A stretch of 64,000 bases of DNA from Antedon mediterranea (taxonomy: Eukaryota > Animalia > Echinodermata). The notes below the pieces were generated by a model, which made no database searches, had not been told where the DNA came from, and saw only the letters and a list, made by a program, of their open reading frames with translations. Made by a program: the position numbers and the translations under genes. Location of the stretch: the NCBI RefSeq assembly GCF_964355755.1, contig NC_092676.1, positions 3,573,888-3,637,887 on the forward strand, given 5' to 3'. Below, piece by piece: positions 6,003 to 62,104 of this stretch. Each line of letters begins with the position of its first letter. The first letter of the stretch is position 1.

Positions 6003-7523
6003 ATGGCTCGTCAGCAACATTGGACATATCTGTTTTACAAGTGTTTAATTATATTGAAGAGTATATTCTACTGCTGTTGTGCTCAATCCTATATTTTTAC
6101 AAAAGATCCACAATCAGTTCTCGTTGCAGAAGGACAAACAGCAACGTTATCATGTGCATGGTCACCAGCATTGAATGGAAACCATTATTTTGGATGGTCT
6201 TATTATCGACCTGGTATTAGCATTCAACGAATTGATGGTTTAAATGCAAGATACAATATAATTAATGAAGCAACCTTTTCAAATCTTTCCATTTTCAATG
6301 TTGGCCCTTTTGAAGTAGGAAGATACAGGTGTGATATCTTTGACGATGACGCTTCATACATTCTTTCTGAGCATGCTCTTGTAGTGCTAGGAGAAATATC
6401 GTGCAATCCAGAATACGACAATGGTGAAATAGGAACAACGATGACATGTTCTTACATTTCCTCTTATAATGTTAATGCTATTGATTTATTATTGTATAAG
6501 AATGGAAAAATAATTACATCAGAAGTACAAGATAATGTTTTAGAATCAAGGGCTTTGACTAGCGAACACGATGGAGCTGTATTTACTTGTAAAGCCACCA
6601 CTGGACCAAACAATCAAGTGATAGGAACTTGTGAAACTACTCCGCTAATACTGACTATAGATGCAGAGATTGAACAATCACAGCCAGGTACACTTCAAGT
6701 TGGAGATAGCTTTAACCTTACCTGCTCAGGGAAAGGTAATCCTGATTATTATGAATATGAATGGACGTGGAATGACAAACCTGTAGGATCTTTATCAAGT
6801 GAAAGACAATTTGCAATAGTTAATGTGCTTTTTGTGACAAGTGTATCAAGCGGTGCAAATGGCAAAATAGTTACTTGTACAATTAGTTGTAGTGGTCGTA
6901 ACAGCAGTACAGCGAGATATACAATAAACGTGCTAGAGAACAATTCGATTAGGCCTACAACTACACAATTGCAAACAACACCAGGTACACGTACGCAACA
7001 ACTCATTACAGACCAACTCTCAGCAACTAATATCTCTTCGGATGACGAGCCCCCAACACTAATTGTTGTTATTAGTGTACTTGCAATTCTACTCGTAGTT
7101 TCTGTAATATTAATAATATACACGTATTTGCAAAAAAGAAACGTATCTAGGGACAACATAATTCCTTTAAATCGACCTTCGAATAATATTGGACAATATT
7201 ACGATTATGTTGCGTCTTCAGACACACAGATCACCACGACAGGCAAAGACACATACACGTATGATTATGCCATATATCCGTGTACACGCATCGCAGAGAA
7301 TACAAGTGCTGAATACATTGAAGTAGAAGAGAGTTACCATGAGGGCCCACAAAAACAAGAGCAAAATATGACCGCATTCGAGAACGATGATGTGTCCTTA
7401 CAACCAACGGATATTTGTAGCAAAGAGGCCACGTACGAAAATGGTAAATTGCGTATCAAAGGCATGGCAACTTCTGACAATGTGACAATTAAGTACGAAA
7501 ACATCAAATCATCTACGCGTTAG
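6003..7523 (+). CDS. Single-exon type I membrane IgSF receptor, 3 Ig domains, tail class B
   Basis: 506-aa ORF: signal peptide ending CCCAQ, ATLSCAW/EVGRYRC, TMTCSY/DGAVFTC, FNLTCSGKGNP/WTW/IVTC, S/T stalk, TM (LIVVISVLAILLVVSVILIIY), tail YDYV, YIEV, YEN, IKYENI. Confidence 0.9.
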   Translation: MARQQHWTYLFYKCLIILKSIFYCCCAQSYIFTKDPQSVLVAEGQTATLSCAWSPALNGNHYFGWSYYRPGISIQRIDGLNARYNIINEATFSNLSIFNVGPFEVGRYRCDIFDDDASYILSEHALVVLGEISCNPEYDNGEIGTTMTCSYISSYNVNAIDLLLYKNGKIITSEVQDNVLESRALTSEHDGAVFTCKATTGPNNQVIGTCETTPLILTIDAEIEQSQPGTLQVGDSFNLTCSGKGNPDYYEYEWTWNDKPVGSLSSERQFAIVNVLFVTSVSSGANGKIVTCTISCSGRNSSTARYTINVLENNSIRPTTTQLQTTPGTRTQQLITDQLSATNISSDDEPPTLIVVISVLAILLVVSVILIIYTYLQKRNVSRDNIIPLNRPSNNIGQYYDYVASSDTQITTTGKDTYTYDYAIYPCTRIAENTSAEYIEVEESYHEGPQKQEQNMTAFENDDVSLQPTDICSKEATYENGKLRIKGMATSDNVTIKYENIKSSTR

Positions 7524-8209
7524 AGAAGACGAGACGAGATAACTACGATGACGTCACCTAGTTGTGGATGAGCTAATAATGATGCAAACGTGTACGAAAA
7601 TGTTAAATTATCACCGAGATTAAGAAGAGTTGGAATAAACATTTCATAATAATTCTAATCGCGAAGATGACGTCACCAAGGTGCATGCGAGTAAAAAAAC
7701 GACGTATACGAAAATGCATCGGTACACACAAAAGCAGTGAGGTGTGCTAAGATATAGAGGAAGCAAAACTGAACCAAACGTACAGAATATTCATACAAAA
7801 ACAAACAATGAAAACTGCACTAACGCATATTATCATATAGACTTGTTTATGAAGTGTTCAATACCTAAATTAGAGGTTTATACCAGGTATGATATATTTA
7901 GTATTAATGTTTTTATTAGTGAAAATGATAACTTTTAACATTTGCAAACTACCGTCCCCAACACGTACAGGGGTGTGACCTAAAAGTATTGTAAGACTAG
8001 TATGGGCCATGATACTTCCATGGTAAGAGAAATAGAAAAGTAGGCTAAATATATACGTTGAATTATTATAGCACAGTATTAAAATATTGTAATTTTGTTT
8101 AAGGAAGTAAATCAAAAAATATTATATTATAAATAATCAACTCTGAGATTAAAATTAACCAGGAAAGGGAAGGAAGGAAGTATTAGAAAACAATGCAATA
8201 TACATGGCT

Positions 8210-8295
8210 GCAGTCGCGTGCTCAAGTTAGTGTTTACCGACCGAGCAACTGACCGACATAGAGAGATGTAAAGTCGCGTTGCAAGCGACTAATAA
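8210..8295 (-). mobile_element. Short Helentron/HINE-like repeat (other copies ~62785-62868 and, inverted, ~36970-37080)
   Basis: agtcgcgtg subterminal motifs, an (ccga)n/(gtcg)n microsatellite core and a short stem near a T-rich end. Confidence 0.45.
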
Positions 8296-8448
8296 TTAGC
8301 AGAATTAAACTGTACAGAAACGAGTAAAGAAAAACAGAATAAAGTTCATCGATAACATACTCTTATTTGGCATGAAATAAGCAACAATAAAATATCGATA
8401 TATGCAAGTACACGTGATTGTCCAAAATGGATTTTCCATGTTTCTATA

Positions 8449-8712
8449 TGTAAGGATGTGGACGACAACACAAAAGGAAAAACACGCCTTTTCTCACTTT
8501 TACCACGGTCCGGTGGTGTATTTGGTTTTAATTTGTTTTTAGCATAACAATAGAGATCAGTATGGTCCTTTTAATCAGATCTTTAATTAAATAATAGACA
8601 AAACTATCTGCTTCCTTGACAGGTTCATGAAAAAGACTGTTACAATTATAGGGGGCAGTAACACCTATAGGGGGCAGTATTTAATTATCACATGATTAGA
8701 TTAATCCCCACA
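8449..8712. mobile_element. Solo LTR, 264 bp
   Basis: TGT...ACA termini flanked by a TATA duplication; the paralogous empty site at ~63017-63030 reads ttctatataaagct. Confidence 0.75.
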
Positions 8713-9437
8713 TATATAAAGCTGCGATTGTATACGCCATTAGATTTCTATATAAATATAATTTAAATATTAAACTTTAAGCAAGAACTTATATATAGTG
8801 ATCGATATTTACACGTTGCAAATTAGTAATTTTGTAAAAATGTATTTAATATATTTCGTATCAATAATATAAATATTTCTATTTTATAGTTTTGCTTTAA
8901 GGCTATAATTTTTTACTGTATATTTATACATTTTTGTATATTAATAGGCATGTGTTTTGTAACTTTTAAAGGTTACTTTATTATTACTTGTATTAATTTT
9001 TAATGTAACCGAGTAAATTATGTAATTTATTGTTTTATGACATACAATACAGGAAATAAATTAAATTTGAAAAACAATTTTACTACAATAATTTTAGACT
9101 AGTTCAGACTTATGTTTTTATTTTACAGAGAATAAATAAATAGTATCAGATATCACAAATGTGTGAAGAAATACATTAAAAATATTATTTTATTCTCTCA
9201 GCTTGAGTGTACTACTTACAGTACGCTCATGTAAATATATATTTAATTGAATATGTATAAGTAATTGTTTCTGTAATTGATTATTATAAGAGAGCAGACA
9301 AATTAAACTTAATTTAAAGTTATTTTTTTCCAAATGTTATTGTACTTGTTTGTTGATTAAGGAACAAATGAATGGAAATGGTACCAGTTGAGATCAACGT
9401 TAACGAGAATAAGAAAGAAAGTTGTAACCAAAAAAAA

Positions 9438-9700
9438 AATGAATATGACTGTGTAAAATCAGCAGACAATCAAAACGATAAAATGACTGAAACAGACAGT
9501 GAAAATGAGTATGATTATGTGGAAACATCAAACATAGGCGCCATAGTAAAAGAAGGCACTGCAGAATATATTGAGGGTGTTGATGACAACACTGATGCTG
9601 ATTCCTTGACTGCCCTACTATAAACAGAAACTAATAGGGCTACTGTGGCTGAGTACAATGATGCTTCAATACCACTAAACTAATTTCAATAAATACTAGA
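9438..9700 (+). pseudogene. Orphan cytoplasmic-tail fragment of a class-G receptor
   Basis: NEYDCVKSADNQN...SENEYDYVETSNIGAIVKEGTAEYIE matches the end of 50946-52631; no upstream Ig or TM coding sequence. Confidence 0.85.
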
Positions 9701-10459
9701 AAAATGATAAAGGTATCTGGACTTCGACGTATACGAAAACGCATCTGTACGCACAAAACCACTGAAGTCTGCAAGGAAATGGAAGAAGCAAAACAGAACC
9801 AAACGTAAGATCAAAAACAACAATGAAAACTGCACCAAATAATACATTACATTAAATATGTAAATAAAAAAAATTAATATATCTGCAAAATAATACATTA
9901 CATTAAATACCTATTTAAAAATATAAATATCTGCCATTTCAGTTTTCCAGGTATGATCTATTAAATTTGTTAAGTGAAATCTTTATCTTTCACTATTTCC
10001 AAAATACTGTTCCTATCCCGTAGATGAGTCTGACATATTTTCAGATACAAAAAAAAGCAATAATGACTAAATTATACGTTGAAATGTACAGTAATTAATT
10101 GGTCTGTTGTTTAAGAAAGTAAATTGAAATAAATTAGAGAGATTATTCAGTTATTTACACGTTACAAGTTTGTAATTTTGTGAATATGCATTTAATAAAT
10201 AAATATAATCAGGTATTACACACGTTGGAAAAAAGATATCTAATTCTTTGATAATTTTTTTTAAAGATAGAAAACAACTTTAACTTAATAAAGTTAATGA
10301 AGAAAAAACATTAAAAGTGAAACCAATAATTTGTTTTGTTATTGTTTTACTTTAGATTTGACTTGACTTTCGGTTTAATGCTCAGTATAATGTTGCATTC
10401 ACACGGAGAGGGCGCCGTTCAATTCTTAATAGAATGTATCTATTATTTAACAAAAACTC

Positions 10460-10645
10460 AAACTCTGTGAATCAATTTGCTTTGATTGTCCTCAGGAGTA
10501 CGATCCTCACTCCTGAGGACGATCAAAGCATATTGATCGAAACGTCGAAAAACTCAACAGTTCTTTTCAGAACTAATATACGTGGTGTACCGAAAAATTT
10601 ATATCAACATTTGATTTCGCCATGCAAACCTTCAAACAATACAAT
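10460..10645 (+). mobile_element. Penelope-like element remnant with minimal hammerhead motif
   Basis: CTGAGGA-c-GATCAA agcata TTGATC-GAAA-CGTC at 10513-10546, preceded by an inverted repeat (gattgtcctcaggagt...actcctgaggacgatc). Absent from the paralogous flank near 30920. Confidence 0.55.
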
Positions 10646-10728
10646 GCATTAAGATATAAGAAGTTTTATAACTCGTGGACAACAATATCTAAATGCAAAC
10701 TAAAAATAAATCCTAAGAACGAATTTAT

Positions 10729-12376
10729 TTATATCACTGATGTTCCAAAATATGTATATACACAAGTTACAAATCTAATATATAATTTTATTTGGAACAA
10801 TAAAAGGGAAAAGATAAAAAGAAAAACTCTAATTGGTGATGTTGAGATGGGAGGCATTAAAATGCCTGATTTTACTCTTCATGTTAACGCACTCATGTGT
10901 GGCTGGTTAAAAAGAATTATGAATGATGATGGTGCTAAATGGAAAAATATTCCAATGTATTATATTAAAAAAATATGTGATGTTAATGTTTTACTTAATA
11001 TGTCATGTTATAACATTATTGATGTTAATTCTGATAAAATTCCACTGTTTTACAAAAAATATGATAAAAGCCTACATAAATTATAACAGAATCTTTAAAA
11101 AAAACCCTGAAACTTATAACGATATAATGAATGAGCAACTGTGGGGAAACCACTACGTTAAACTAAAAAAAAATCGCTTTTCTACAGGCATTGGATTGAC
11201 AGTGGCATTATCAGTATTAAAGACATTGTTAATAAGAACACTTTTTTAACATCAAACGAAATACTGGTGAAACTACAATGTAAAACAAACTGGTTAAATG
11301 AGTATTTGTGCATTATTAAGGCAATACCAATTCAATGGAAACGTATTATTAAGGAGGTAGATATTTTCAATTGTGATGATAATGATGAATTAGTTGGCAC
11401 CAAGTATGAGATTAATACTACCAAACTAATATACTCATGGTTTGTGAAAGAATATTTCATTATTCCAATGTCACAACTAAAATGGGAAGAGTACTTCAAT
11501 GATAACAACATTGATTGGAAAACTTCTTGGTTACGGAAAGTATGTAAAATGAAAGATAAGAAACTAGCACAATTCAATTATAAGATGTTACATAGAATAC
11601 TGCCTACCAACAAACGGCTGTATCAGTGGAAAGTTAAGGAAACACAAACGTGTGACAAATGTGGAGAAATTGAAAATGAAAATCATTTGTTTTTTAGTTG
11701 TAGATTTATTCAGAAATATTGGAGGAAAATGCTTAGTATCTTTGTAAGTTTAAATCACAATAATATATCATTTAAACAATTAATACTAGGAACGGGAGAT
11801 AAGCTAATAGATTATATTTACACTTTTGCAGCATTTACTATTTATAGAATAAAAATGTTATCTGCACTAAATAAGCCAGTGGGTAAATCTTTATGGAATT
11901 CATTTAAAAGCAATATGTTATATAACATTGAATGTGAAACATATAACAATAAAGAAACAAGTATAGAAAAATGGGTAGGTTTAGGAAATAAGATTATGAT
12001 AATATAATTTCTAATTTGATACGATTAACCGAAACAGAATTACAGTGATAGGGGTTACTGGTAGTACTGAGCTATTATTGTTTTTTTTTATCATGTATAT
12101 AAATATATTGTATAATCCGGGTTGTAAAATGAAAACAAACAAATGAAAATGTGTGAGCTATTTTAAAACGGGATAGATGATAATGATGATCCTGTCAAGT
12201 GTATAACAAAATATAAGAAAATTAATGAAAAAAGGAGTAATACAGAATTCATATATGTAAAAATGTTACTTATGAACTTTAACGACATTTACAAGTTAAA
12301 TAATACGATTTTATGTAATATGAGATAATATGAATGTGACTAAAAGTGGTGTTTGCGCCACAAAAGAGAAAAAAAA
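10729..12376 (+). mobile_element. 5'-truncated L1/Tx1-type LINE (frameshifted ORF2 C-terminus with zinc finger)
   Basis: FIWNNKREKIKRKTL..GGIKMPDF and FNYKMLHRILPTNKRL..CDKCGEIENENHLFFSC; A-rich tail; 14-bp TSD aagaacgaatttat at 10715-10728 and 12377-12390. Confidence 0.9.
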
Positions 12377-13333: not shown

Positions 13334-14803
13334 ATGGCTCATCATCATTGCTTGTTGTTTTTGATTGTATTGTATAGTATATTTTACGACTGTTTTGCTC
13401 GAATTTATATTTTCACAGAAGATCCAAAATTGGTTCTTATTGCAAAAGGAAACACAGCAAGGCTATCGTGTGCATGGACACCAGAATTGAATGAACGGCA
13501 TACCTTTCAATGGTCATTATTCCCTCAGAATGGTGGTGAGCCTCAATCAATTAGAATGTCAAATTCAAAATACAATCTAACAAATGACGCAACATCTTCG
13601 AATCTTTCCATTTCCAATGTTGATTTCCATAACGTGGGAATATACAGGTGTGATATCACCGGAATAAATGAATACAGTTTTTCTAATGAGGCTTCTGTAG
13701 TGATAGGAGAAATAACGTGCAATCCAGAGAATGATAATGGTGAAATAGGAACAACAATGACATGTTCTTATCCTCCTTCTTATCCTTCAAATGATATTGA
13801 TTTACGATGGTATAAAAACGGAAATATAGTAATATCAGACACACAAGTCAAACACGTTTTAGAATCAAGAGCTTTGACTGCTGAAGACGATGGAGCTGTA
13901 TTTACTTGTAAAGCTTCAATCGGACCAAAACGTCAAGTGATCGGAACTTGTGAGACTACTCCGCTAGTATTGACTATAGATACAGAGATTGAACAATCAC
14001 CACTAGGTCAACTTCAGGTTGGTGATAGCTTTAATTTTACCTGCTCAGGGAAAGGAAATCCTGATTACTATGATTATAAATGGACGTGGAATGACAAACC
14101 AGTAGGATCGTCGCCAAATAAAAGACGATTTGCAATAGGTAATGTGCTTACTGCGATGAGTGTACCAAGCAGTGCTAATGGCAAAAACGCTACTTGTACC
14201 ATTAGTCGTAGTGGTCGCAACAGCAGTACAGCGAGATATACAATAAACGTGCTAGAGAACATTTGGAGTAGGCCTAAAACTACACGATTGCAAACAACAC
14301 CAGATAGACGTACGCAACAACTCATTACAGACCAAATCTCAGCAACTAATATCTCATCGGGTGACGAGTCCCCAACACTAATGGTTGTTATTAGTGTACT
14401 TGCAATTTCATTTGTAATTGCATTAATATTAATAATATACATGCATTTACAAAAGAGGAACTTAGCTAGGGACAACACAATTCCTTCAAAACGACCGTCG
14501 ACTAATATTGGGCACAATTACGATTACATTACGTCATCAGACACACACGTGACCACGGCAGTCAATGACATAGATAATAAATACGATTATGCCGTATATC
14601 CGTGCACACGAAATGAGAAAAACGTCACTGATGAATATATTGAGGTAATCAATTTTTCCCAAGATGACCCACCAAAACCAGAAAGTAATATCGCGGCTGA
14701 GTACGCTAACGTTGCGTTGCAACCAACAGATATTTGCAGCGAAGAGCCAAAGTACGAAAATAATAAACTACGTGTTAAACGCTACAAGCATGACAACGTC
14801 TGA
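13334..14803 (+). CDS. Single-exon IgSF receptor, tail class A
   Basis: Uninterrupted ORF with the same SP-3xIg-stalk-TM architecture; tail YDYI, YIEV, YANV, YEN. Confidence 0.9.
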   Translation: MAHHHCLLFLIVLYSIFYDCFARIYIFTEDPKLVLIAKGNTARLSCAWTPELNERHTFQWSLFPQNGGEPQSIRMSNSKYNLTNDATSSNLSISNVDFHNVGIYRCDITGINEYSFSNEASVVIGEITCNPENDNGEIGTTMTCSYPPSYPSNDIDLRWYKNGNIVISDTQVKHVLESRALTAEDDGAVFTCKASIGPKRQVIGTCETTPLVLTIDTEIEQSPLGQLQVGDSFNFTCSGKGNPDYYDYKWTWNDKPVGSSPNKRRFAIGNVLTAMSVPSSANGKNATCTISRSGRNSSTARYTINVLENIWSRPKTTRLQTTPDRRTQQLITDQISATNISSGDESPTLMVVISVLAISFVIALILIIYMHLQKRNLARDNTIPSKRPSTNIGHNYDYITSSDTHVTTAVNDIDNKYDYAVYPCTRNEKNVTDEYIEVINFSQDDPPKPESNIAAEYANVALQPTDICSEEPKYENNKLRVKRYKHDNV

Positions 14804-16017
14804 CAATGTAAAAACCAAGTACGAACAAAATTGAAATTGTTAACGTCACATCAGACTGTAAAAAAACATCAAACGACTTAATTAATTATATAAAAATATA
14901 TTATAATATTCCAGAGACGAAAATATCTTTTTAATATTGGCCTCTAACTAATGTTGAGCGTAGAAAATATATTCAAAAAGTACCGAATCAAAATTAAGGA
15001 AGAGTGAGATTCTTTTCTGATCTAAATTATATGTAAACGAGCAACACAAAACAATAAGGAAGGAAAGGAGTTTTACGAAAAGATTATCTCAAGGTTTCAA
15101 AGCAGGTACAGTACTATGATTGGTTCATGATCAAGTGCCGGTCCGGTCACGTGTTCAGTTTTACATTCACGTTCAAAGAATGTTTTACACAATCCGGGTT
15201 CCGACGAGCACACCCCAAAGAAAAAATCGAGTGAGTTCAATCAGTCATTAGAAAGGATGTTGACTTTTGTTAAACTTTACTACCGAGTTTTAGATTGTTG
15301 ATATTTGAACAGGTTTTGTGCGCAATGATATTCATAATATGTTTCATAACGTTAATCATAAGTCTATACGCAATATCACATTACATCGAATGTTTCATGA
15401 GACATAGTCGTATATCGATTTAACTTGAAGAAAACGACGAAAACCATTATAGAAATTCAGCAAGGAGATCCGAAAAAAACAAATGGCATGATAAAAAGCT
15501 AAAAAATAAAGAAAAACAAATAATAATCGTTGAATATTTATCCACACAAATTGTGAAGTTGAGTACGAAAAGAATACATTAATACAGTATAGTGACATAT
15601 TCCTTGAGGTTTGTTTTATCACATTCAAGATCAGTGCGCAGAATTATTGTAAAACAAGTTTCTCGACGCCCAAAAGAAAAGAGGACGAAAACCAAAGTAT
15701 TATGACAAAATGTAAGACTAGTAAAAACGGTATAAAAAAAACATCTTACTTTGAACGTTAACACGACAGGTAAGAGAAAGTTATGTTTCAACCAATCACA
15801 GTCACGAACAACTCAGCGTTTACAACTTAAACATTCAATGACCATAACGGTTTTAATCGATAGATGTACTTCACGCTCTCTCTCTAGGAAAAAATGGCAA
15901 TGTATTAGGAAAGTATTTTTACAGTATTACATCATTAATGTTGAATATTCAGTGGCACTATTTCCTGGTCATTTCTGCAGTAATCAAGTGTACCATTAGT
16001 AGTGAAATAGATCATTC

Positions 16018-16439
16018 CAGGGAAGAGTTCTTTCTTTCTTTCTTTCTTTCTTTCTTTATTTACCCATAAATATAAATTATAAACATTGTAATACAAATAA
16101 TAATAATTATATCAAGGGAAGGGCTAAAAAATAGTTAAAACTAATCAAGTTCAGCCCCTAAACATTGAAGTATAAATAGTTATATAAATAAATTAGGGCA
16201 ACTTGTCTAAAATAAAATTAATATACATAAACATTTTTTTTTTTTTTTTTTTAAATACACTTTCTCTCAAATATATACAATATAATTCTCTTATAAAATA
16301 AATAAATATCACTATACAAACAAATAGTATGTTTTCATTTCTTTTTTGAATTTGCTTTTTGTTAGAAACCTTAAATCATCTGGGATTTCATTCCAGAGCT
16401 TTGCACCAGAATACTTGATGGAATGTTAACTCTTCCCTG
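16018..16439 (-). mobile_element. CR1/L2-like LINE 3' fragment inside a 24-bp palindromic insertion
   Basis: Minus strand reads SIKYSGAKLWNEIPDDLRF..FKKEMK with an (AAAG)n tail. It is bracketed by cagggaagagtt / aactcttccctg and a duplicated atcattc. Confidence 0.65.
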
Positions 16440-16742
16440 ATCATTCCAACTTATATAACAACTAAATAAAGACACTTGTAGTGTCAACGTGTAATGTTTG
16501 ACTACGAATATAGGATATGACCGTATAAGAAGTTATTATTGGATATAATGTTTGATTGAAGTGTTTATAAATCTATGCGTACAGTCTACATTTTGATAAG
16601 GAAGTTAACTTAAGCAATGTTTGGAAGTCAGTCAAAGTGCCCGAGTCAGTACTATAGTATTTTATTAGGCATATAACAACGCGTGGGAACATTACAACAT
16701 TATAATTGTTTATAATTAGCTACATTTAATGCAAAGCTTACA

Positions 16743-49944: not shown

Positions 49945-50110
49945 ACATTGGACAACAACATATGTTGTTTTACAAATGCTTGATTATATTTAATTATTAT
50001 ACACTTGTTAAAAACCACCGATATCGGTTATCGTTGCGAAAAGACAAACACCAACGTCATCGTGTGAATGAACACCAGAATTATATACAAACGATGCAAT
50101 ATCTGAAATA
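49945..50110 (+). pseudogene. Decayed Ig1 fragment (duplicate of 27165)
   Basis: SVIVAKRQTPTSSCE* from 50024. Confidence 0.7.
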
Positions 50111-50945: not shown

Positions 50946-52631
50946 ATGGCTCATCATCAATATTGTACATTGCTGTTGTACAAGTACCTGATTATATTGT
51001 ATAGTGTATTTCACTGCTGTTGTGCACAATCTTATACTTTTACAAAACATCCACAACCGGTTCTCGTTGCTGAAGGACAAACAGCAACGATAGCGTGTGA
51101 ATGGACACCTGAATTGAATGAAAACCATGATATTTCATGGAGATACCAACCTGTTCTTAGAACGGGTCAATTAATTACAAAATCAACATCAAAATACACT
51201 TTCACAAAAGGTGCAACATTTTCAAGGCTTTCCATTTTAAATGTTGATTCTTATGATGTAGGAACATGCTTGTGTCGTATCTCCGAAGGTGATGGTGTAT
51301 ACAGTTCTTCTAAAACTACTTATGTAGCGCTAGGAGTATTAACGTGTAGTCCAGAATATGATAATGGTGAAATAGGAACAACGATGACATGTTCTTATAC
51401 TTCATCTTATTCTGTATATATTGTTAATTTACTATGGTATAAAGACAGAAATGAAATTACTTCAGCAGCACAACGAAATGATATCAAAGAATCAAGGGCT
51501 TTGACTGATGAAGACGATGGAGCTGTGTTTACTTGTAAAGCCACAATTGGATCTGAAGAGATAGGAACTTGTGAAACTACTCCTCTAATATTGAACATAG
51601 ATGCAGATATTAAACAATCACCGCCAGGTCCACTTGAGGTTGGTGACAGCTTTAACCTTACCTGCTCAAGGAAAGGTAATCCTGAGTATTATGAGTATGA
51701 ATGGACGTGGAATGGCAAACCTGTAGAATCGTCACCAAATGAAAGGCTATTTTTAATAGGTAATGTGCTTACTGTGATGAGAGTATCAAGCAGAGACAAT
51801 GGAAAAATAGTTACTTGTACTATTAGTCGTGATGGTCGTGACAGCAGTGTAGCGAGTTATACAATAAACGTTTCAAACACAACACAAGGTAGGTCTACTG
51901 TTACAGACCTATTATCACCAAACAATGTCACGTACGACGTGCCCAAAACATTGATTATTGTCATTGGTGTACTTTCAACAGTTATTGTGATTTTGATAAC
52001 AGCCATTGTAATTTACTTTTTAAACAAAAGGCGTAGGAAACAGAAAGACAAAAAGACAAAACACGAAAGTGTACAACGGAAAGAACCAGAACAAGACATT
52101 ATAAATTCTAAAAAAACACACGTAGGTAATGATCCTCTGCGTGGAAAATGTATAATCCCTGTATATGATGAACCTGTAAAGTCAGATACACATGGAAACT
52201 TGGAGATTGTTTACGAAGACCCTGACGTGCCGACACACGACCAATTAACAGAAAAGGATAAATTTGATTATTTTGCATCAGAAGAAATGACAGTTGAAAA
52301 AGAAGGCAAAAACGAGTACGACTATGTGGCAACAACAGACACCCACAGTGCTGATTTGACAATTAAATCAGACATAAACCATACCTATGATAATGTGGTT
52401 TCAGCAGACATCCACAGCACAGAAAATGAATATGACGATGTAAAATCAGCAGACGAACAAAACAATGAAACATACAGTGAAAATGAGTATGATTATGTAG
52501 AAACATCAGGCATAGGCGCCACAGAAAAAGAAGGCTCTGCAGAATACATTGAACTTGTTGATGACAACGCCGATGTCGACTGTCACATCAAGAGGAAGCC
52601 ACCAACAACTAATATGCCTGCTGCATCCTAG
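50946..52631 (+). CDS. Single-exon IgSF receptor, short stalk, acidic tail class G
   Basis: 561-aa ORF; tail YDEP, YEDP, YDYV x2, YDNV, YDDV, YIEL. Confidence 0.9.
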   Translation: MAHHQYCTLLLYKYLIILYSVFHCCCAQSYTFTKHPQPVLVAEGQTATIACEWTPELNENHDISWRYQPVLRTGQLITKSTSKYTFTKGATFSRLSILNVDSYDVGTCLCRISEGDGVYSSSKTTYVALGVLTCSPEYDNGEIGTTMTCSYTSSYSVYIVNLLWYKDRNEITSAAQRNDIKESRALTDEDDGAVFTCKATIGSEEIGTCETTPLILNIDADIKQSPPGPLEVGDSFNLTCSRKGNPEYYEYEWTWNGKPVESSPNERLFLIGNVLTVMRVSSRDNGKIVTCTISRDGRDSSVASYTINVSNTTQGRSTVTDLLSPNNVTYDVPKTLIIVIGVLSTVIVILITAIVIYFLNKRRRKQKDKKTKHESVQRKEPEQDIINSKKTHVGNDPLRGKCIIPVYDEPVKSDTHGNLEIVYEDPDVPTHDQLTEKDKFDYFASEEMTVEKEGKNEYDYVATTDTHSADLTIKSDINHTYDNVVSADIHSTENEYDDVKSADEQNNETYSENEYDYVETSGIGATEKEGSAEYIELVDDNADVDCHIKRKPPTTNMPAAS

Positions 52632-53140
52632 TACAATGTTGCTTCAATGTCACAAACTTATATTTCAGTAAATATTAGAGGAAATGATAATGAGGCTGAG
52701 TTCGAAAACAGTAAATTGCATCTGGACTTCTGATAACTCAAAGACCACGTCCGAAATTATCACCGAGATCAAGAAGAGATTGAATAAACATTTCAGATAA
52801 TCGCAAAGATGACGTCACCAAAGTGCATGCGAGTAAAACGGAAGTTGAAGTACCTGATACAAACGACGTGTAAGAAATTGGCATCGATACGCACAAAAGA
52901 AGTGAAGTGGGCTAAGAAATAGAAGAAGAATAACAGAACCAAACGTACAGAATATTCATACAAAAATCAAACAAAAACTGCACTGACGCATACAGTATTA
53001 TCATATAGTCTTGTTAATGAATGTTTAATCTATTAAGGCTTTTACTGTCCCCAATACGTACAGCGATGTGACTTATTCTTAAAAGTATTGTAAGACTAGT
53101 ATGGGCCATGATACTTTCATGGTAAGAGAAATACAAAAGT

Positions 53141-53372
53141 GGAGTGGAGCTGTAGCTTGGTGGTTAACGTGCTTGCCTTCCAATCCCAAGTGCCTGGGTT
53201 CAATCCTGACCTAGTGCAGGGTTGTAACTCATGACTCTTTCAACTCCACTCCCTAAGCCTCAAATGAGACTTAGTTTATAAGCACGATCAATTATTAAAT
53301 AGTTTATCCATCCTGTAATTGGCGAGTTACTCGCTGTTGGATGAATATGAAGAAAAAAATAAATAAAAAAAA
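53141..53372 (+). mobile_element. tRNA-derived SINE
   Basis: tagcttggtggttaa A box, gggttcaatcc B box, A-rich tail; absent from paralogous flanks at ~8040 and ~62615. Confidence 0.7.
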
Positions 53373-56067
53373 TATATACGTTGATATCGTTGAATTATTA
53401 GCATAAATTTTGTTTAAGGAAGTAAATTAAAAAATATTATATTAGAAATAATCAACTCTGAGATGAACATTAACCAGAAAAGGGATGGGTAGGAAGTATT
53501 AACAAATGATTAACAAGTATTCAAATCGTACAGAAACGAGGACAGATTAAAGTTCATCAATAACATATCTTAATTTGGCATGAAATAACCAACAATAAAA
53601 TATCAATATATGCAAGTACACGTGATCGTCCATGATTTTTCCATGATGTTTCTATATAAAACTACGATTTTATACGTCATTAGATTTCTATATAAATATG
53701 ATAATTTAAATATTATGCAAGAACTTATATATTGATCGACATTTACACGTTGAAAATTAGTAGTTTTGTGAATATTTATTTAATATATTTCGTATCATTT
53801 ATATAAATATTCATATTTATATTTTTGCTTTAAGGCTATCATGTTTTTGCTACAATAAGTTTAGACTAGTTCAGACTAATGTTTTTCTTACCAGAATAAA
53901 TAAATAGTATAAGATATTACAAATGTGAGAAGGAATACGTTTAAAATGGTAACGTACCGTAATGTAAATATATAGTATCTTATTTCATAATGGATAAAAT
54001 TAAAAATTTAATTTTATTCTCTCAGCTTGAGTGTAGGCCTACTACTCACAGTACGGTCATGTAAATATAGTATCTTATTTTATACTGGATAACAAAAATA
54101 TATTTAATTGAATATGTAATTAATTGTTGTTGTAATCGATTATTATTAAATATATTATAAAGAGCAATCAAATTAAACTTCGTTTTTTCAAATGCTATTG
54201 TACTTGTTTGTCGATTAAGGAACCAATGGATGAAAAGAGCACCAGTTGAGATAAACGTTAACGAGAATAAGAAAGTTGTAACAGAAAAGTGACTAGGAAG
54301 GCTTTAAGAATGTATGCAAAGCGAGAAATATAATGTCAAAAGGTCATAGCTTGGTTCCTTCAAACACAAAATGCATTTTCTTTTACGAAATAACGCCAAA
54401 CACAGCAAGGAAACGTTTCATTAAGACATCCTTGTAAACATTGCACTGTATATAGTTCTTAATACATTTAGAACATTTCCGAAATAACTGTCCCTGAATG
54501 GAACTTGTTTAAAAGATATCTACACTAGAGTAAAAACATTATGTGGTTCATTTTAGTTGTTGTGCAGTTGGGCTCTCTTGATTATACTTTACATTTCTCA
54601 TTAGTTTTTTTTTCATATAGAAATGAATGATAATTATCTATAGTAATTACACTCCATGCACGGGAATTACGAATCTACCGAAAATTAGCAGGCATTTGAA
54701 GATCAGAAGTGTTCTGAACCTAGGCCTAGGGTCTAATATGCAGTACTATATATATATAAGAAGTTTTCTCGTGGAAAACAATATCTAAATGCAAATAGAC
54801 TGAAAAGTAAATAATAAATGATAAAAATAAAAACGAATTTATCAAATATATTATAACATGAATAATCTAATGAACAGAAGAAAAACAAATAAAATACTAA
54901 CTAAACATATGGACGAAAAATAAATGAAAAGAAATATTTCTAATGGGAAAATGCATGATGTATGTAAGAAAGTTAAAATTAATTTTTCAAATCTAATATT
55001 TTGGTTATATGTAGTGTTCAAAGTAAGTATATTAACGGAAGCCCAAACAGTTTTTAACAAGTATATAGTTATGATTTTTATAAATATAATTCTTGATATA
55101 ATAATTACTACAGTACATGTTATTCACTTTCCCGCATGGCTATTTTTTATCAGCTGTTGTTTGTTTAAAAAACAATTTTTAAACAATTTGCCATTTAATT
55201 GTAACATAACAATAAATCAAAATTGGATGGAGGTCATTCCAATACCATTGTACGGTACTGAACAAATGAATAAAACACTGTCAATTTGTTTTGAACGTCC
55301 CACAGTCATGTCCAAACGAAGGTGCGCGTAACGAACTAGGACGAATTCCGATTAATTACTATAAAATATTGAGAATGATCAAGTATTGGATAAAAATAAA
55401 TAAAATGGAACTTAATAGTAGATTAAAAAAATATGCTACCAAACACGAACATTAATCAGTGCACACTACTAACAAATAAACTATTTAAATGAAAGATGAC
55501 GTCACCTAGTTGTGCGTGAGCACCACCAAAGAGGCTATTAATGACGCAAACCTGTACGAACATAAATCAGTGCACACTACTAACAAAAAAAAAAGTAAAA
55601 TGCTTTTCTTTTAAATCGTATAATAACATAATGCAGAACGAACACCGTAATCTGAAAATAGAAATCAGTGATAAAAAGAATAAAATTGTTCGTAACTTAA
55701 TGCAAATGTATTAACGGAGAGGATGCGGAAACAGGTAAATAAGTAAGCTGTGCCTTGTTAAAACAATTAATGCGTTTCTGGTGTATATTAAAATATTTAC
55801 GTAAGAAGGAAGATCAAAATAAACACACTTTAGTCAAAAAATCCATCTATCATTGTATAAAAACCACTATCCCCACAGAACAATTTCCTGAATATCAACA
55901 AATTCAAACGATTCAATTTAATCTAGAAATCAAATCCTTTTTTCAACAAACCTTCTTTCCAAGGCTTCTTTTTAATATTGTCTAACAATGTTTAGTGTAG
56001 GAAAGGAAACAATAATAAGAGCAATACAAACACAAAATAAGGATGTTTTACGAAGTGATTGGCTAAA

Positions 56068-56248
56068 AGGCCAATTTACACAGACAAGTGGTAACGGTAC
56101 TATAAATATATATAATCTATGTTATTTCTTATAACCCTTTACACACAACGCTCAGTGGACGAGCGGTTTCCGCTCAGGATAGATACAGACTCTATGTGTC
56201 TACGCGGTTTTCCGCTTACCGTTACCGCTCGTCTGTGTAAATTGGCCT
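56068..56248. mobile_element. Harbinger-type MITE
   Basis: Perfect 18-bp TIR aggccaatttacacagac / gtctgtgtaaattggcct followed by TAA. Confidence 0.75.
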
Positions 56249-57844
56249 TAATGTTTCAAAACAGGTAAAGGACCTATTTTTCGTTGATATTTCATTTTAT
56301 TTATTCATGGTCGAACACAGTAAATACATACATGAAACTATTTTTGTTTGTTCAAAGTTAAAAATTCACATTTAATACAAAAATGATGTTAAAATATACA
56401 ATATTGAATAACAAAACGATTTTATTGTTTTCTTTATAGATTATGTAGACCTGATTTATTGTTATTAAAAGAGAGCAAACAAATTTAACTTTTAATAAAG
56501 TGGATTTTTCAAATGTATGTCGACAAATTGAAACATTTATTTATTAAAGCAACTGAGATCAACAGTAACGACAATAACAAAGGAAAAGTGGTGTAAGATG
56601 GTTCTCTCTAAAACCTCGAATATACCTCATTAGATTTGTATATAGATATAGTATAGATATTCAACTATAAGCAAGAACTTAACTATTGTTGTTACTAACG
56701 TTACAAGTTTGTAATTTGTGAATTAATGCACTTAATAAATACTATCAGGTATTAAACATTATTTAAGGAAACAATAACATTAAATTATAACCGAGCAACG
56801 CGACAAGAATAACACAGGAATAAGGAAGGCAGTAAGTTTAACGATTGAACAATGTATTGATTTATCAAGATGTCCGGTATCATGTTTTGTTTTTACTGAA
56901 CAAAATAATGCCAGTAAATTAACTAATATATCAACATATTGGTTAAGGAAACGAATTTTAATAAAAGTATGTACCCTAAAATATAATGTATACAAACTTG
57001 CATTGTCTACAAAGTTTAATGGTTCACCCTCAACACTGAACTATGTTGTTTTACAAATGCTTGATTACAATTAAATATACACTACACATATACTGAATAT
57101 CCTGGTATTATAGATGGAGTGGTAAACAATTTATAAATTCAGAAACAAAGTAAACATAAATCTATGTATATGTTTCCATCTAATTGTAGCCTTACGTTAA
57201 TCTAGTCAAACTAAGTGTTCAATGCTTACAAAACAAAGGAGGGGCCAATGCGGGGTTGGGGGTTACACATTTACTGTCATTACACCTAGAAGACAGACAT
57301 TTAATCAGAAATTGTATATTTTCATAAAAAGAACAATATCTTTCTACATATATTTAAATCAATAGTATGTTCAAATTACTGTATTTGACAATGCAGTGTT
57401 AATGTTCAGAATTGTTTAATTCTTATTCTTGTCAGCATTTATCAGGTATTCCTGCCGTGTGTGGCAGCAGATAGCAACTTGCATAAAAGAAACAGGAATG
57501 ATGAAAAGTTTTAGTTCTAAGTTACTCGATAGGGGGCGGTATGCATTACTAGTTTTACCTATAGAATGAAATATGTTAAAATAACTTTATACAGGTTACG
57601 TAGTTGATGATACTATCAATTTAGCAGGAGTCCGCTACAATACAGTACACAGTAATCAGAACGACTGAGTGTTACAGAGTATTACTTGTACCAAGGTGTG
57701 TGAACGTCAACAGCAACTATACAATATTAAGGAATACAGTATCGTTAAATTTGGTATACAATTCTGGACATTTTTTTTCCGTATTATCTTGAATTTGATA
57801 AGTAAGTAAATCGATCCCGGAACTTAACAGTCGCAGTGTTTATA

Positions 57845-59575
57845 ATGGCTCATCATCAATGTTGTAAATTGCTGTTGTACAAGTGCCTGATTACATTGTA
57901 TAGTGTATTTCACTGCTGTTGTGCTCAATCCTATACTTTTACAAAACAACCTCAACCTGTTCTTGTTCGACAACGACAAACAGCAACGCTATCGTGTGAA
58001 TGGACACCTGAATTAAATGAAAACCATGATGTTGTATGGTCATTTTATTATCCTGAAGGTGGATTGGGTAAATCAATTGAACGTTCAACGTCAAAATACA
58101 TTTTAAAAAAAAGTGCAACATCTTCAAATCTTTCCATTTTGAATGTTGATTCTAAAGATGTAGGACGATACAAGTGTGATATCTCTGAAGGTGATGGTGT
58201 ATACAGTTCTTCTAAAACTACTTATGTAGTGATAGGAGAGTTAACGTGCAGTCCAGAATATGATAATGGTCACATAGGAACAATGATGTCATGTTCTTAT
58301 ACTACTTCTTATTCTCCATATGCTATTGATTTACAATGGTATAATGTAGAGAATAAAATTACTTTAGCAGCACAACAAAATGGTATCAAAGAATCAAGAG
58401 CTTTGACTGCTGAAGACGATGGAGCTGTATTTACTTGTAAAGCCACAATTAAATCTGAAAAGATAGGAAGTTGTGAGACTACTCCGCTAATATTGAATAT
58501 AGATGCGGAGATTGAACAATCTCCGCCAGGTACACTTCAGGTTGGTGATAGCTTTACCCTTACCTGCTCAGGGAAAGGTAATCCTGAGTATTATAATTAT
58601 ACATGGACGTGGAGTGGCAAACCTGTAGGATCGTCATCAAGTGAAAGACGATTTGCAATAGAGAGTGTGCTTACTGTGAAGGAGGTAACAAGCAAAAACA
58701 ATGGCAAAATAGTTACTTGTACCATTAGTCGTGATGGTCGTGACATCAGTACAGTGAGCTATACAATAAGTGTTGCAGAAAATACGCAAAGTACAACTGC
58801 ACGTTCACGCACAACACAAGGTAGGTCTACTGTTACAGACCTACTATCAGCAACAACATTATCATCAACCAAACTATCAGCCAACAATGTCACGCACGAC
58901 GAGCCCCAAACATTGATTATTGTCATTGGCGTGGTTGCAACAGTTATTGTGATTTTGACAACAGCAATTGTAATTTATATTTTACATAAGAGGCGCAAGA
59001 AACAGGATGACAAAAAGACAAAACCTGAAAGTGTATCATTGAAAGAACCAATGTATAGTAACACTGATCAAAATATTAACAGTTCTGAAAAATCACGCAT
59101 ACAAAATGGCACTCGGAGTGAAAAGTTGATAACAGATTTTACAGTATATGATGAGCCTACGATTTCAAGTTCAAATACTCAGTTGGAGACTATGTACGCA
59201 GAACCTGATAGGTTAGTAGCTGGTCACGATGCTAGGTATGACACGCCACGGAACGCTATAAGTCTTGATAATATCGATTCAGCGAATACTGATGAAGCGA
59301 GTGATGCTAAGCCAAGAAAAACAAAAAGCAGAGAAAGTATAGATGCAATGTATGCGAAACCAAACAAGTCTCGCAGTACAGAAAGTATTGATGATCTGTA
59401 TGCTAAGCCCAACAAACCGACTGCAAGAACGCCAGAGATTACCCGTGAAGACCCTACTAAGAAAAACGTAGAAGGCCTAACGTACGCAGATATAGAGTTT
59501 AAAGGCGGTACGTTTCCAAACCCTGAACCACAGGACTACGGACTTGATTACGCAACTGTACAGATAATGAAGTAA
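57845..59575 (+). CDS. Single-exon IgSF receptor with two C-terminal ITIM-like motifs
   Basis: Uninterrupted ORF; tail YDEP, YAEP, YDTP, YAKP x2, LTYADI, LDYATV. Confidence 0.92.
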   Translation: MAHHQCCKLLLYKCLITLYSVFHCCCAQSYTFTKQPQPVLVRQRQTATLSCEWTPELNENHDVVWSFYYPEGGLGKSIERSTSKYILKKSATSSNLSILNVDSKDVGRYKCDISEGDGVYSSSKTTYVVIGELTCSPEYDNGHIGTMMSCSYTTSYSPYAIDLQWYNVENKITLAAQQNGIKESRALTAEDDGAVFTCKATIKSEKIGSCETTPLILNIDAEIEQSPPGTLQVGDSFTLTCSGKGNPEYYNYTWTWSGKPVGSSSSERRFAIESVLTVKEVTSKNNGKIVTCTISRDGRDISTVSYTISVAENTQSTTARSRTTQGRSTVTDLLSATTLSSTKLSANNVTHDEPQTLIIVIGVVATVIVILTTAIVIYILHKRRKKQDDKKTKPESVSLKEPMYSNTDQNINSSEKSRIQNGTRSEKLITDFTVYDEPTISSSNTQLETMYAEPDRLVAGHDARYDTPRNAISLDNIDSANTDEASDAKPRKTKSRESIDAMYAKPNKSRSTESIDDLYAKPNKPTARTPEITREDPTKKNVEGLTYADIEFKGGTFPNPEPQDYGLDYATVQIMK

Positions 59576-60621
59576 ATATTTTCCCGCAACATTTACCAGT
59601 ACGTTTATTGTTACATTTATCATTACGAATTAACCTTTGACATGTGACGTAACCGCATCGTTCAATATTGCTTGTACTGTATATACAAAGCTATTTTAAT
59701 GCAATGTGTATTATTATAGGCCTAACAAGTAACAGTAAAACGAATTTCTATCGTAATGTTATACGTCATACGCATCTCAACAACGATCATGAAGGAATTT
59801 GTTGAAATTACTGGGATGCTAACATTTTATTTTATTAGAAACAGTATAATTCTAAAGATTTTCTGAAATATCAGATTTTAACCAAATGGCAAGTGAAGCG
59901 TTTTGACAAATCATGGACACGTGTCCCGCAAAAAAAAAATACAACTAATATTGGAAAACTCTCTCCATAATTTCAAGTTTAACTTTATCTACGGAGGCCT
60001 AGCTCAACACGGATGTTCTTTGCTGCAGCCGTGCTATAGAAAGGACAGCAGTTGTGTACGCAGTAGCAGTAAACAGACTTACAATAACATAAAAAGAGAA
60101 GGACAGGAAAGCCCCAAAGTTTTAATACAAGTTACACTCTAGGGGGCAGTATATCCTGCTACTGGTTTTACCTGACAGTCGGTAATCTGTGACAATAACT
60201 TGAAACCGGATATCTAGTTATATTGCATAACGAGCCTGACGTTCAAAAACAGTGATTTGATACAGTACACATAAATCAGATCGAGTGAGTGTTTAAACTA
60301 GTACCATTTCTATCAAAGTTGGTTATTTCTTTTTAGACCGTAGCATATTACAATACACAGTGATTAGACACAGTTGAATCATAATCGAGAAGGTGCTTAA
60401 ACTGGATACAACTTCTATCATAACAAATGTGTGGCAACATCAACTAACAATGTAATGTATACAGTTTTACATTGTATTAAGTATCTTTAAATCATCGGAA
60501 TCTAGTATTTCTCAACGTTTTTATTCCGTACCAACAATCTCTATTTTGATAAGGAAATAATTTACACCAATCTATAGCAATATTTGGAACTCAACCATCG
60601 GAAGAAAATACACAGTTCGTA

Positions 60622-62104
60622 ATGGCTCGTCAGCAACATTGTACATTGCTAATTATATTGTATAGTATATTTCACTGCTGTTTTGGACTAACCTATTTGT
60701 TCACAGATCCACAATCGGTTCTCGTTACAGAAGGACAAACAGCAACTCTATTGTGTGTTTGGAAACCAGAATTGTTCGAACAGCATAACTTTGAATGGGT
60801 ATTATTCCCTCAGGATGACGGTGAATCTCAATCAATTAGAATGTCAAATTCAAAATACAATTTAATAAATAACGCAACATCTTCATATCTTTCCATTTCC
60901 AATGTTGATTCTGATGACGCGGGAAACTACAGGTGTGATATCATCGGAATGAATGAATTCAGTTATTCTGATCAGGCTGCCGTAGTGATAGGAGAAATAA
61001 TGTGCAATCCAGAATATGATAAAAGTGAGATAGGAACAAAGCTGAAATGTTCTTATACTTCTTCTTATCCTTTAAATGATATTTATTTACGATGGTATAA
61101 AGACGGAAATATAGTAATATCAGACACACAAGACAAACACGTTTTAGAATCAAGAGCTTTGACTGCTGAAGACGATGGAGCTGTATTTACTTGTAAAGCC
61201 ACAATTGGATCTCAAGTGATAGGAACTTGTGAAACTACTCCTCTAGTATTGACTATAGATGCAGAGATTGAACAATCACCACCAGGTCCACTTCAGGTTG
61301 GAGATAGCTTTAATCTTACCTGCTCAGGGAAAGGTAACCCCGATTATTATGAATATGAATGGACGTGGAATGGCAACCCCGTACGATCGTCACCAAATGA
61401 AAGTCGATTTTCAATAGGTAACGTGTTTATTGTGAAGGATGTATCAAGCAATGCCAATGGCAACATAATTACTTGTACCATTAGTCGTAGTGGTCGTAAC
61501 AGCAGTACAGCGAGGTATAAAATAAACGTTCTAAAAGAATATATCGAGTAGGCCTACAACACCAGGTAGACGTACGCAACAAGTCGTTACTGACAAACTC
61601 TCAGCAACTAATATCTCATCGGGTGACGAGCCCCCAACACTAATGGTTGTTATTAGTGTACTTGCAATTTTACTCGTACTTTTAGTAATAACAATAATAT
61701 ACACGTATTTGCAAAAAAGAAACGTATCTAGGGACAACATAATTCCTTTAAATAGACCATCGAATAATATTGGACACAATTACGATTATGTTGCGTCTTC
61801 AGACACACAGATCACCACGACAGGCAATGACACATACACGTATGATTATGCCATATATCCGTGTACACGTATCGCAGAGAACATTAGTGCTGAATACATT
61901 GAAGTAGAAGAGAGTTTCCATGATGGCCCACAAAAACCAGAACGAAATATGACCACATTCGAGAACGATGATGTGTCCTTACAAGCAACGGATATTTGCA
62001 GCAAAGAGGCCACGTACGAAAATGGTAAATTGCGTATCAAAGGCATAGCAACTTCTGACAAGGTGACAATTAAGTACGAAAATATTAAAACATCTACGCG
62101 TTAG
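60622..62104 (+). pseudogene. IgSF receptor, tail class B, +1 frameshift just after Ig3 (or secreted 309-aa form)
   Basis: ctaaaagaatatatcgagtagg vs ctagagaacatttcgagtagg at ~61535; TM and tail lie in the next frame (61643-62104). Confidence 0.8.

Follow-up and report, generated by a model that had tools for sequence, protein, structure and literature searches.

The question raised by this locus is how far the receptor genes of a tandem array have exchanged parts with each other. The array lies in a 64,000-nt stretch of AT-rich animal DNA (Antedon mediterranea, contig NC_092676.1), referred to below as the window, and consists of 13 paralogues, all on one strand. The sequence-only reading of this stretch had proposed that promoter, first immunoglobulin (Ig) domain (Ig1), stalk and tail are swapped between paralogues in a combinatorial manner. 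The data showed that the mosaicism of the array is real, and that it consists of about five events, in which mainly a 5′ block (upstream DNA, Ig1 and Ig2) was re-paired with a 3′ block (transmembrane segment, TM, and cytoplasmic tail). It is quite likely that the nearest relatives of the segments differ as a result of mispaired germline recombination, by unequal crossing-over and gene conversion, which would give similar predicted ectodomains different tyrosine-motif tails.

The intact members share a layout of a Kozak-type ATG, a leader, three Ig domains (Ig1 to Ig3), a serine/threonine (S/T)-rich stalk, an uncharged TM and a tyrosine-rich tail. The leader, the Ig folds, the single TM and the cytoplasmic tail identify the predicted proteins as Ig superfamily (IgSF) type I receptors. 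Pfam V-set, I-set, Ig_2 or Ig_3 matches were found in all six receptor proteins scanned, and a structure model showed three beta-sandwich domains (predicted local distance difference test score 73). Seven of the 13 genes are intact (6003, 13334, 16743, 32656, 47092, 50946 and 57845), each as a single open reading frame (ORF) from the ATG to the end of the tail, and the genes are apparently intronless, since their reading in one frame requires no intron. The other six are broken or truncated, with damage to the tail in 24629 and 28045, and a stop before the TM in 967, 19712, 42219 and 60622. The genes are named here by their starts and grouped into classes A (6003), C (967, 13334 and 32656), D (19712 and 42219), E (24629 and 47092), F (28045, 50946 and 57845) and X (16743). 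Identities are nucleotide values unless given for amino acids (aa), and parent assignments are drawn from paralogues within the window.

967 to 1353, + strand: truncated C-class paralogue, leader and Ig1 only, 128 aa; upstream DNA 84% identical to 13334/32656
6003 to 7523, + strand: intact A-class receptor of 506 aa; represents the donor type of the 60622 flanks and tail and of the 28045 tail
13334 to 14803, + strand: intact C-class receptor, 489 aa
16743 to 18299, + strand: intact chimera of 518 aa; upstream DNA and Ig2 D-like, Ig1 unassigned, TM and tail C-type, then a 40-bp satellite
19712 to 21498, + strand: broken D-class gene; frameshift at ~20420, tail end lost
24629 to 26152, + strand: E-class gene; tail shortened at ~26140, ectodomain 99% identical to 47092
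28045 to 29773, + strand: chimera; F-type upstream DNA, Ig1 and Ig2, 16743-like Ig3 and 72-bp stalk repeats, A-type TM and tail
32656 to 34128, + strand: intact C-class receptor, 490 aa; 40-bp satellite behind it (34243-34665)
42210 (start 42210/42219) to 44056, + strand: broken D-class gene; frameshifts at ~42870 and in the stalk, tail end with two ITIMs (tyrosine-based inhibitory motifs of immunoreceptors)
47092 to 48807, + strand: intact E-class receptor, 571 aa
50946 to 52631, + strand: intact F-class receptor, 561 aa; TM and first part of the tail like those of 57845, tail switch at ~52225-52285, then YDxV-rich tail and A-type 3′ flank
57845 to 59575, + strand: intact F-class receptor, 576 aa; probably non-chimeric; no other intact gene has a pair of ITIM-consensus motifs
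60622 to 62104, + strand: double-junction chimera; +1 frameshift at ~61533 ends the ORF at 309 aa

For the comparison, 12 genes were cut into upstream DNA, leader, Ig1, Ig2, Ig3, and TM with proximal tail, while 967, which has only Ig1, was omitted from all trees. The identity matrices showed five 5′ classes and a differing set of 3′ classes among these 12 genes. As the sequence-only reading had anticipated, the separate segment trees were incongruent: the maximum likelihood trees of Ig1, Ig2, Ig3 and TM-tail rejected each other in 11 of the 12 cross tests (approximately unbiased, AU, p ≤ 0.03), and the only accepted combination was that of the Ig1 data with the Ig2 tree (AU p 0.146). An AU value of 0 for an upstream D+F superclade was ignored, because the likelihood difference was 0 and the topology was the same. 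Clade-constrained tests localised the conflict to 60622, 28045 and 16743. The 6003+60622 clade was rejected in Ig1 (p 1.4e-5) and Ig2 (p 0.005) and was compatible with the upstream and TM-tail data; the F trio (28045, 50946 and 57845) formed a clade upstream, in Ig1 and in Ig2, and was rejected in TM-tail (p 6e-4); grouping of 16743 with the D genes was accepted upstream and in Ig2 and rejected in TM-tail, while its grouping with the C genes behaved in the opposite way. The Ig3 data rejected none of the seven clades tested. The observed likelihood gains were 27, 55, 147, 46 and 14, compared with maxima of 4.6, 8.9, 5.3, 5.2 and 5.3 in simulations in which each segment evolved on a single shared tree with its own branch lengths (12 per segment, 60 in total). 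The silent sites tracked the swaps, with the proportion of silent differences in Ig2 of 60622 at 8-14% to the C genes versus 27% to 6003. Because the silent sites switch along with the amino acids, convergence is not the cause. In a pairwise homoplasy index (PHI)-type test of the ectodomain, 17 of 2000 permutations were as low as the observed value. Together with the triplet scans and the 284-bp tract described below, the segment trees, the silent sites, the PHI-type test and the single-tree simulation support recombination or conversion between the paralogues.

The sharpest case is 60622, in which 6003-type upstream DNA and tail were indeed found around a 13334/32656-type Ig1, with the C-type tract extending over Ig2 too; the earlier term promoter is used here for upstream DNA as defined by sequence. 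The upstream 400 bp are 91% identical to 6003 and 62-63% to the C genes. Ig1 is 83/82% and Ig2 91/92% identical to 13334/32656, versus only 68% and 81% to 6003, while the juxtamembrane part (97%) and the distal tail (93%) are close to 6003, and Ig3 is ~87% identical to every gene. Triplet scans gave values of twice the log-likelihood difference of 186 and 174, while 200 permutations of each scan reached at most 23 and 26. Of the informative sites, 261 of 290 agreed with 6003 outside the tract, and 125 of 179 with 32656 inside it. The C-type tract covers ~60747-61220, from the B strand of Ig1 through Ig2, its onset lying within Ig1 and off the domain edge, while the A-type portion comprises the upstream DNA, the first 20 nt, the TM, the tail and the 3′ flank. 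The A flanks continue on both sides for kilobases, at 87-99%.

The three-part structure claimed for 28045 was also observed, with an F-type 5′ half, a 16743-like Ig3 and stalk, and a 6003-type tail. Its upstream DNA is 91% identical to 57845, its Ig1 and Ig2 are 82-85% and 85-87% identical to those of the other F genes, its Ig3 is nearest to 16743 (87%), with which it shares the 16743 stalk repeat, and its TM is 94% identical to 6003, with which 209 of 218 informative sites in TM-tail agree. The switches lie at ~28600-28700 and ~29235-29300. The gene follows an E gene, as 50946 does, and precedes a C gene, and its 3′ flank is that leading from 6003 to a C gene, with 29987-30930 matching the region downstream of 6003. 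Hence, the core of 28045, with F upstream DNA and an A downstream flank, appears to have a deletion-type, Lepore-like layout.

In the case of 16743, the Ig2 in common with the D genes and the C-type tail were both confirmed, although the tail proved nearer to 32656 (97-98%), with which 142 of 150 informative sites agree, than to 13334 (91-96%), the gene named before. Its Ig2 is 88/85% identical to 19712/42219 and its upstream DNA is D-like, while TM and tail are C-type; its Ig1 is at most 74% identical to any class in the window. The switch lies at ~17310-17390, and the sequence is C-type from ~17770-17870. The gene sits between a C and a D gene. Its 5′ flank is the one that precedes 42219 (matched by 15311-16500), and its tail and 40-bp satellite are those of 32656. 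This flank order fits the product of an anti-Lepore duplication, and conversion can give the same pattern. The 40-bp minisatellite is present at 18414-19152 (18.5 copies) and 34243-34665 (10.5 copies), directly behind the C-type tails of 16743 and 32656, and is absent from 13334, the 3′ flank of which breaks off at ~14825.

The gene 57845 had been read as a 50946-type ectodomain and TM joined to a 42210-type ITIM end. This pattern was found, but its direction is probably reversed. TM and tail of 57845 are colinear with 42219 from the TM to the stop (47% over 220 aa, the full length, E 1e-71). The alignment of 50946 to 57845 ends at tail residue ~97; from there on 50946 has the tail type whose remnant sits at 9436, and then an A-type 3′ flank. 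Since the D+F(+16743) clade was compatible with the data in upstream DNA, Ig1, Ig2 and Ig3, 57845 needs no recombination. The chimera was rejected in favor of a tail switch in 50946 because the 57845 tail is colinear with 42219 throughout; thus 57845 is probably not a chimera, and 50946 would be the gene that switches tail. The stop codon of 50946 (52629-52631) is a sense codon in every covering contig of the public sequencing runs X2, X1 and X6; other alleles or copies of 50946 may carry a longer tail, and the covering contigs could be paralogous. Two tail remnants lie elsewhere in the window:

4841 to 4960, + strand: remnant of a 57845-type dual-ITIM tail end, 95% aa identity to 57845 residues 539-576
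9436 to 9710, + strand: remnant of a 50946-type distal tail, 76% nucleotide identity

The module swapping proposed from the sequence was thus borne out for the mosaic pattern and the three named chimeras, and probably not for the direction in 57845. Of the interpretation, the recombination or conversion stands, while the free swapping of four modules (promoter, Ig1, stalk and tail) was an overstatement: upstream DNA, Ig1 and Ig2 move together except in 60622, and a second departure from this joint block is 16743, whose Ig1 matches no class. The placement of junctions in conserved Ig2, Ig3 and TM sequence held for most inferred switches, which range from late Ig2 to the stalk, but failed for 60622 (variable Ig1) and 50946 (tail). 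Donor painting put a switch within alignment columns 560-681 (late Ig2 to the start of Ig3) in nine of the 12 genes, and the mean identity rises to 83-88% from late Ig2 to Ig3. The class structure dissolves in Ig3, with within-class identities of 82-86% versus a between-class mean of 83.6%, except for the E pair and 13334/32656. The latter two genes, 82% alike in Ig1 and 90% in Ig2, have in common an identical Ig3 tract that had escaped the earlier reading and compares with a longest run of 138 in 20000 permutations:

13961 to 14244, + strand: Ig3 tract, 284 bp, identical to 33286-33569; read as recent conversion

Self-comparison of the window showed duplicated blocks at 4841-8449 with 59458-63024 and at 19443-28965 with 41938-51872. 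The block pairs of classes A, D and F have flanks of mostly 87-99% identity around ectodomains that differ at 12-28% of silent sites. The ectodomains of the E pair (24629-25552 and 47092-48015) are 99% identical and show no exchange with other classes.

In the mechanism that we propose, mispairing would be seeded by the most conserved stretch, from late Ig2 to Ig3, together with the repetitive stalk. Since each gene reads as one frame, the junctions land in coding sequence and must keep the frame. The flanks tell crossovers from conversions, and hence 16743 and 28045 are crossover-like, while the C-type cassette of 60622, with A flanks on both sides, arrived by conversion or double crossover. 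Single crossovers would have given 16743, a duplication product located between its parents of classes C and D, and also the 28045 core, a deletion-type fusion in which Ig3 and stalk were replaced afterwards by 16743-like sequence. A double crossover or conversion would have brought a C-type Ig1-Ig2 cassette into an A-type locus to form 60622, conversion or double crossover could have homogenised Ig3 of 13334 and 32656, and a crossover within the tail would have produced 50946. A more ambitious version of this scheme, which we regard as doubtful, is that an invertebrate lineage maintains intron-free paired receptors as a dedicated system. The conserved Ig2/Ig3 junction and the repeat stalk would then serve as a permanent hub of exchange, and whole ligand-binding cassettes would move in frame between loci that differ in upstream control regions and in their ITIM or adaptor tails. 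Such exchange would be fast enough to leave 91-99% identical flanks around ectodomains differing at 20-28% of silent sites in duplicated loci, and selection would retain hybrids across species.

Ig1 is V-set-like, with a variability peak in the C-C′-C′′ region (55% window identity), and seven of the ten most variable positions are located at mature residues 35-77; the mean ratio of nonsynonymous to synonymous divergence (dN/dS) is 0.91 in Ig1 versus 0.64-0.72 elsewhere. Pairs of ITIM-consensus matches are present in 57845 (LTYADI and LDYATV) and in the broken 42219 (LTYAEI and LDYATV), a single match is present at the tail end of 6003 and 60622, and the other tail motifs are repeated YDxV in 50946 and YDY/YxN in A, C and E. 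From these motifs we infer that 57845 would be inhibitory, with two ITIMs of the SHP/SHIP type, that the YDxV/YEN tails would dock adaptors, and that the tails could thus differ in signaling output as had been suggested. The F trio, in which Ig1-Ig2 are 82-87% alike on three tail types, with that of 28045 truncated, would be the best case for the re-pairing of ectodomains with tails. Architecture and motifs suggest that the proteins are likely non-self or pathogen receptors. The stalk consists of S/T-rich repeats and is 78-378 nt long; in-frame tandem repeats at 29022-29278, 48066-48328, 21256-21413 and 43705-43863 vary the stalk length and the number of DLYxKP motifs in the D tails. Degenerate YEN-type repeats continue past the stop codons of A and C tails (7520-7720, 18296-18430 and 62100-62300), which suggests that these tails may formerly have been longer.

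Several observations, including the adhesion-type similarities taken up below, weigh against the recombinational re-pairing of ectodomains and tails in functional receptors. Donors outside the window are invisible, so that the parent assignments are provisional, and many painted Ig2/Ig3 switches may be noise where genes are ~85-90% alike. A special homogenisation of Ig3 was considered and rejected, as the fourfold-site divergence between classes is 0.199 there versus 0.216 in Ig1 and 0.171 in Ig2, unlike the Nei-Gojobori mean synonymous divergence, which is 0.23 in Ig3 versus 0.39 and 0.35. The tail of 28045 has a frameshift near 29480 and a stop at 29544, and 60622 has its +1 frameshift near 61533, before the TM; this frameshift had no covering contig in runs X2 and X3 and is unconfirmed, while a contig of organism B across the 60622 stalk does not have the frameshifting base. 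The immunoreceptor tyrosine-based activation motif (ITAM; Yxx[IL]x6-12Yxx[IL]) was found in none of the 12 tails, and the TM cores have no charged residue, hence the activating arm is unsupported. Among the contigs of public runs that served as check material, none spans a whole chimera, and the bridges cover the 60622 and 50946 junctions alone. The repetitive nature of the array, the several frameshifts, the 99% likeness of the E genes, A flanks up to 99% alike, and the lack of a read spanning a whole gene could suggest that the chimeras are assembly artefacts, or that the window joins two haplotypes with allele pairs posing as paralogues. We consider this very unlikely, because a zero-mismatch contig at 60659-60782 from runs X2 and X3 (one sample, S1) bridges the non-C leader and C-type Ig1 of 60622, with a second variant of the bridging contig at similar depth, and a contig of organism B (52159-52483) spans the tail switch of 50946 with 22 differences in 326. 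The X1 contig 51882-52217 was not counted as bridging, as it ends at about this switch. Sample S1 shares 0.56-0.59 of the window words, with many fixed differences, and is possibly another individual and possibly the source of the window. Run X8, which may be of RNA, extends over intergenic DNA too. Moreover, between the borrowed segments and the donors in the window the differences amount to 8-18% (identity 92% or less), unlike what a mis-join of window sequences would give, and one window contains F ectodomains three times and C ectodomains four times. A weak further point against artefact is the depth of the E-gene contigs in X2 (810-1146 versus 136-166 for unique contigs, ~6-7×), which is not copy number and hints at more E-class copies outside the window. 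It is hardly credible that the appearance of shuffling stems from rate differences on a single gene tree or from convergent selection on amino acids: Ig1 is fast, the segments are short and Ig3 is star-like, but simulations on one tree with segment-specific branch lengths never approached the observed conflict, and silent sites and non-coding flanks switch as well.

The other alternatives accept the exchange and differ in its meaning. It is a serious possibility, somewhat short of an even chance, that the re-pairing arises neutrally as the array turns over, with hybrids mostly decaying and selection acting only on Ig1 diversity. This would agree with the broken or truncated state of six of the 13 genes, including 60622 and 28045, with the tail and Ig1 remnants at 4841, 9436, 27164 and 50025, and with the homology of the A and C tails (juxtamembrane 76-80%), owing to which A-to-C swaps may change little; on the other hand, 16743 and 50946 are intact, and the presence in organism B of the 50946 tail junction and of a 60622 stalk contig without the frameshift hints at retention. 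Somewhat less probable is that the ectodomains of the block pairs, chiefly D and F, are old duplicates or allelic lineages under diversifying selection, around which flanks and tails were homogenised later, so that flank and tail are what moved. In the D pair, flanks and tail are 91-96% alike versus 78-87% for Ig1-Ig3, with silent differences of 21-28%, the D ectodomains stay sisters in Ig1 and Ig2, and the tails of 16743 and 32656 are 97-98% alike while the D-like part of 16743 is just 85-88% identical to D. However, the Ig1-Ig2 of 60622 nest inside the C clade, the 284-bp Ig3 tract is left unexplained, and such a history would still be ectopic exchange, altered in direction and timing. Finally, we consider it rather unlikely that the proteins, instead of sensing pathogens, bind each other in adhesion or allorecognition, in the manner of nectin/CADM, DIP or Alr. 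Pointing in this direction, the nearest structural and embedding neighbors are mostly adhesion proteins. The top fold matches, at identities of 13-20%, include NCAM, Necl-4, Necl-5, DIP-theta and nectin-1 as well as SIRP and CD22, and the neighbors in an embedding atlas, generic Ig clusters at 0.92-0.94 of which one is echinoderm, include Fasciclin-3-like clusters; Hydractinia Alr proteins join adhesion with ITAM/ITIM tails. The rapid birth and death, the pseudogenes and the hypervariable Ig1 face are typical of immune clusters, although compatible with allorecognition too, and immune recognition is our preferred reading of the predicted proteins.

The upstream DNA of the A, C and F genes, otherwise ~55-60% alike, contains two short recurring motifs, which are candidate shared control elements:

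743, 5654, 27863, 32433, 57655 and 60275: first recurring upstream motif
5514-5518, 12948, 27734, 32271, 50664, 57531 and 60137: second recurring upstream motif

Decayed leader/Ig1 fragments lie upstream of F genes (27164-27301 and 50023-50096), and a broken retroelement end of the long interspersed nuclear element type (zf-RVT, 10577-12007) is inserted upstream of 13334. Two ORF fragments without a Pfam match resemble a reverse-transcriptase end (38465-39117, − strand) and a piece of a Harbinger-type transposase (3424-3864, − strand). A short inverted-repeat element at 22560-22715, 23545-23700 and 46061-46163 has a very high copy number in all public runs compared.

Homologue searches with 57845, a nine-protein alignment and the 50946 ectodomain gave no match, which is weak evidence, as candidates were limited to proteins of near length sharing short words. 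None of eight proteins was present in an exact-sequence collection, no relative was among the 148 pattern matches of a metagenome scan, and sequence and fold searches of PDB gave generic Ig matches only. In the literature, with few subscription papers covered, no description was found of this family, of its within-exon junctions, of crinoid ITIM-type Ig receptors or of intronless invertebrate tandem ITIM Ig genes, and the family is not described in the accessible part of PMC11999971. The receptor family is apparently undescribed.

The array can be compared with several known systems. In the paired receptors Siglec, SIRP and CEACAM, similar ectodomains are found on ITIM and non-ITIM tails, with gene conversion among members. 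The likeness here is a member with an ITIM pair (57845) and a similar ectodomain on different tails (the F trio), while the differences are that there is no ITAM and no activating partner with a charged TM, and that the similarity is generic to Ig domains. KIR have MHC class I ligands, and their activating members have a charged TM residue. Non-allelic recombination among them yields hybrid genes in which the promoter is switched (KIR2DL1/S1) or the cytoplasmic tail altered (KIR2DL3/2DP1) (PMC2816608). The array resembles KIR in the formation of hybrids by non-allelic recombination in a tandem Ig-receptor array, with promoter and tail switching, but KIR are vertebrate multi-exon genes, and the array shows no sequence kinship to them and has far more divergent classes (63-88%). 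In globin-type fusions, an anti-Lepore fusion is flanked by parent copies, Lepore is the deletion product, and conversion can produce the chimeric pattern as well (PMC4041002). The position of 16743 between C and D parents resembles the former, and 28045 resembles a deletion product; the globin genes are unrelated, and here later exchange overwrote Ig1 of 16743 and Ig3/stalk of 28045.

The Hydractinia Alr genes are clustered single-pass IgSF genes with up to three Ig-like domains and many pseudogenes, in which Alr12A/B are >90% alike save for domain 1 at 64%, the tails contain ITIMs and many ITAMs, and Ig domains, Fn3-like spacer and TM each have their own exon, allowing exon shuffling (bioRxiv 10.1101/2022.03.04.482883). 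Both are invertebrate IgSF clusters with pseudogenes, domain-level mosaicism and tyrosine-motif tails including ITIMs. Alr differ in having one domain per exon, while seven genes here are single ORFs with junctions inside domains; in the Fn3-like spacer, in place of which an S/T-rich repeat stalk is found here, with no Fn3 family in the Pfam scan; and in the many ITAMs, of which the 12 tails here have none. In its working the cluster is akin to the mosaic receptor clusters of KIR and Alr, but it belongs to neither. Recombination of this kind is well known from tandem receptor arrays and to that extent unsurprising, while invertebrate clusters of ITIM-bearing Ig receptors are thinly described. 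Should related ligands be bound by the F trio, with its different tails, this would be a compact natural test of whether the re-pairing of sensor and signal is selected in invertebrate immunity or self-recognition. By a mechanism already known, the array has formed hybrid genes in the style of KIR, with no introns that could absorb the crossovers, its variant feature being in-frame shuffling inside apparently intronless genes.

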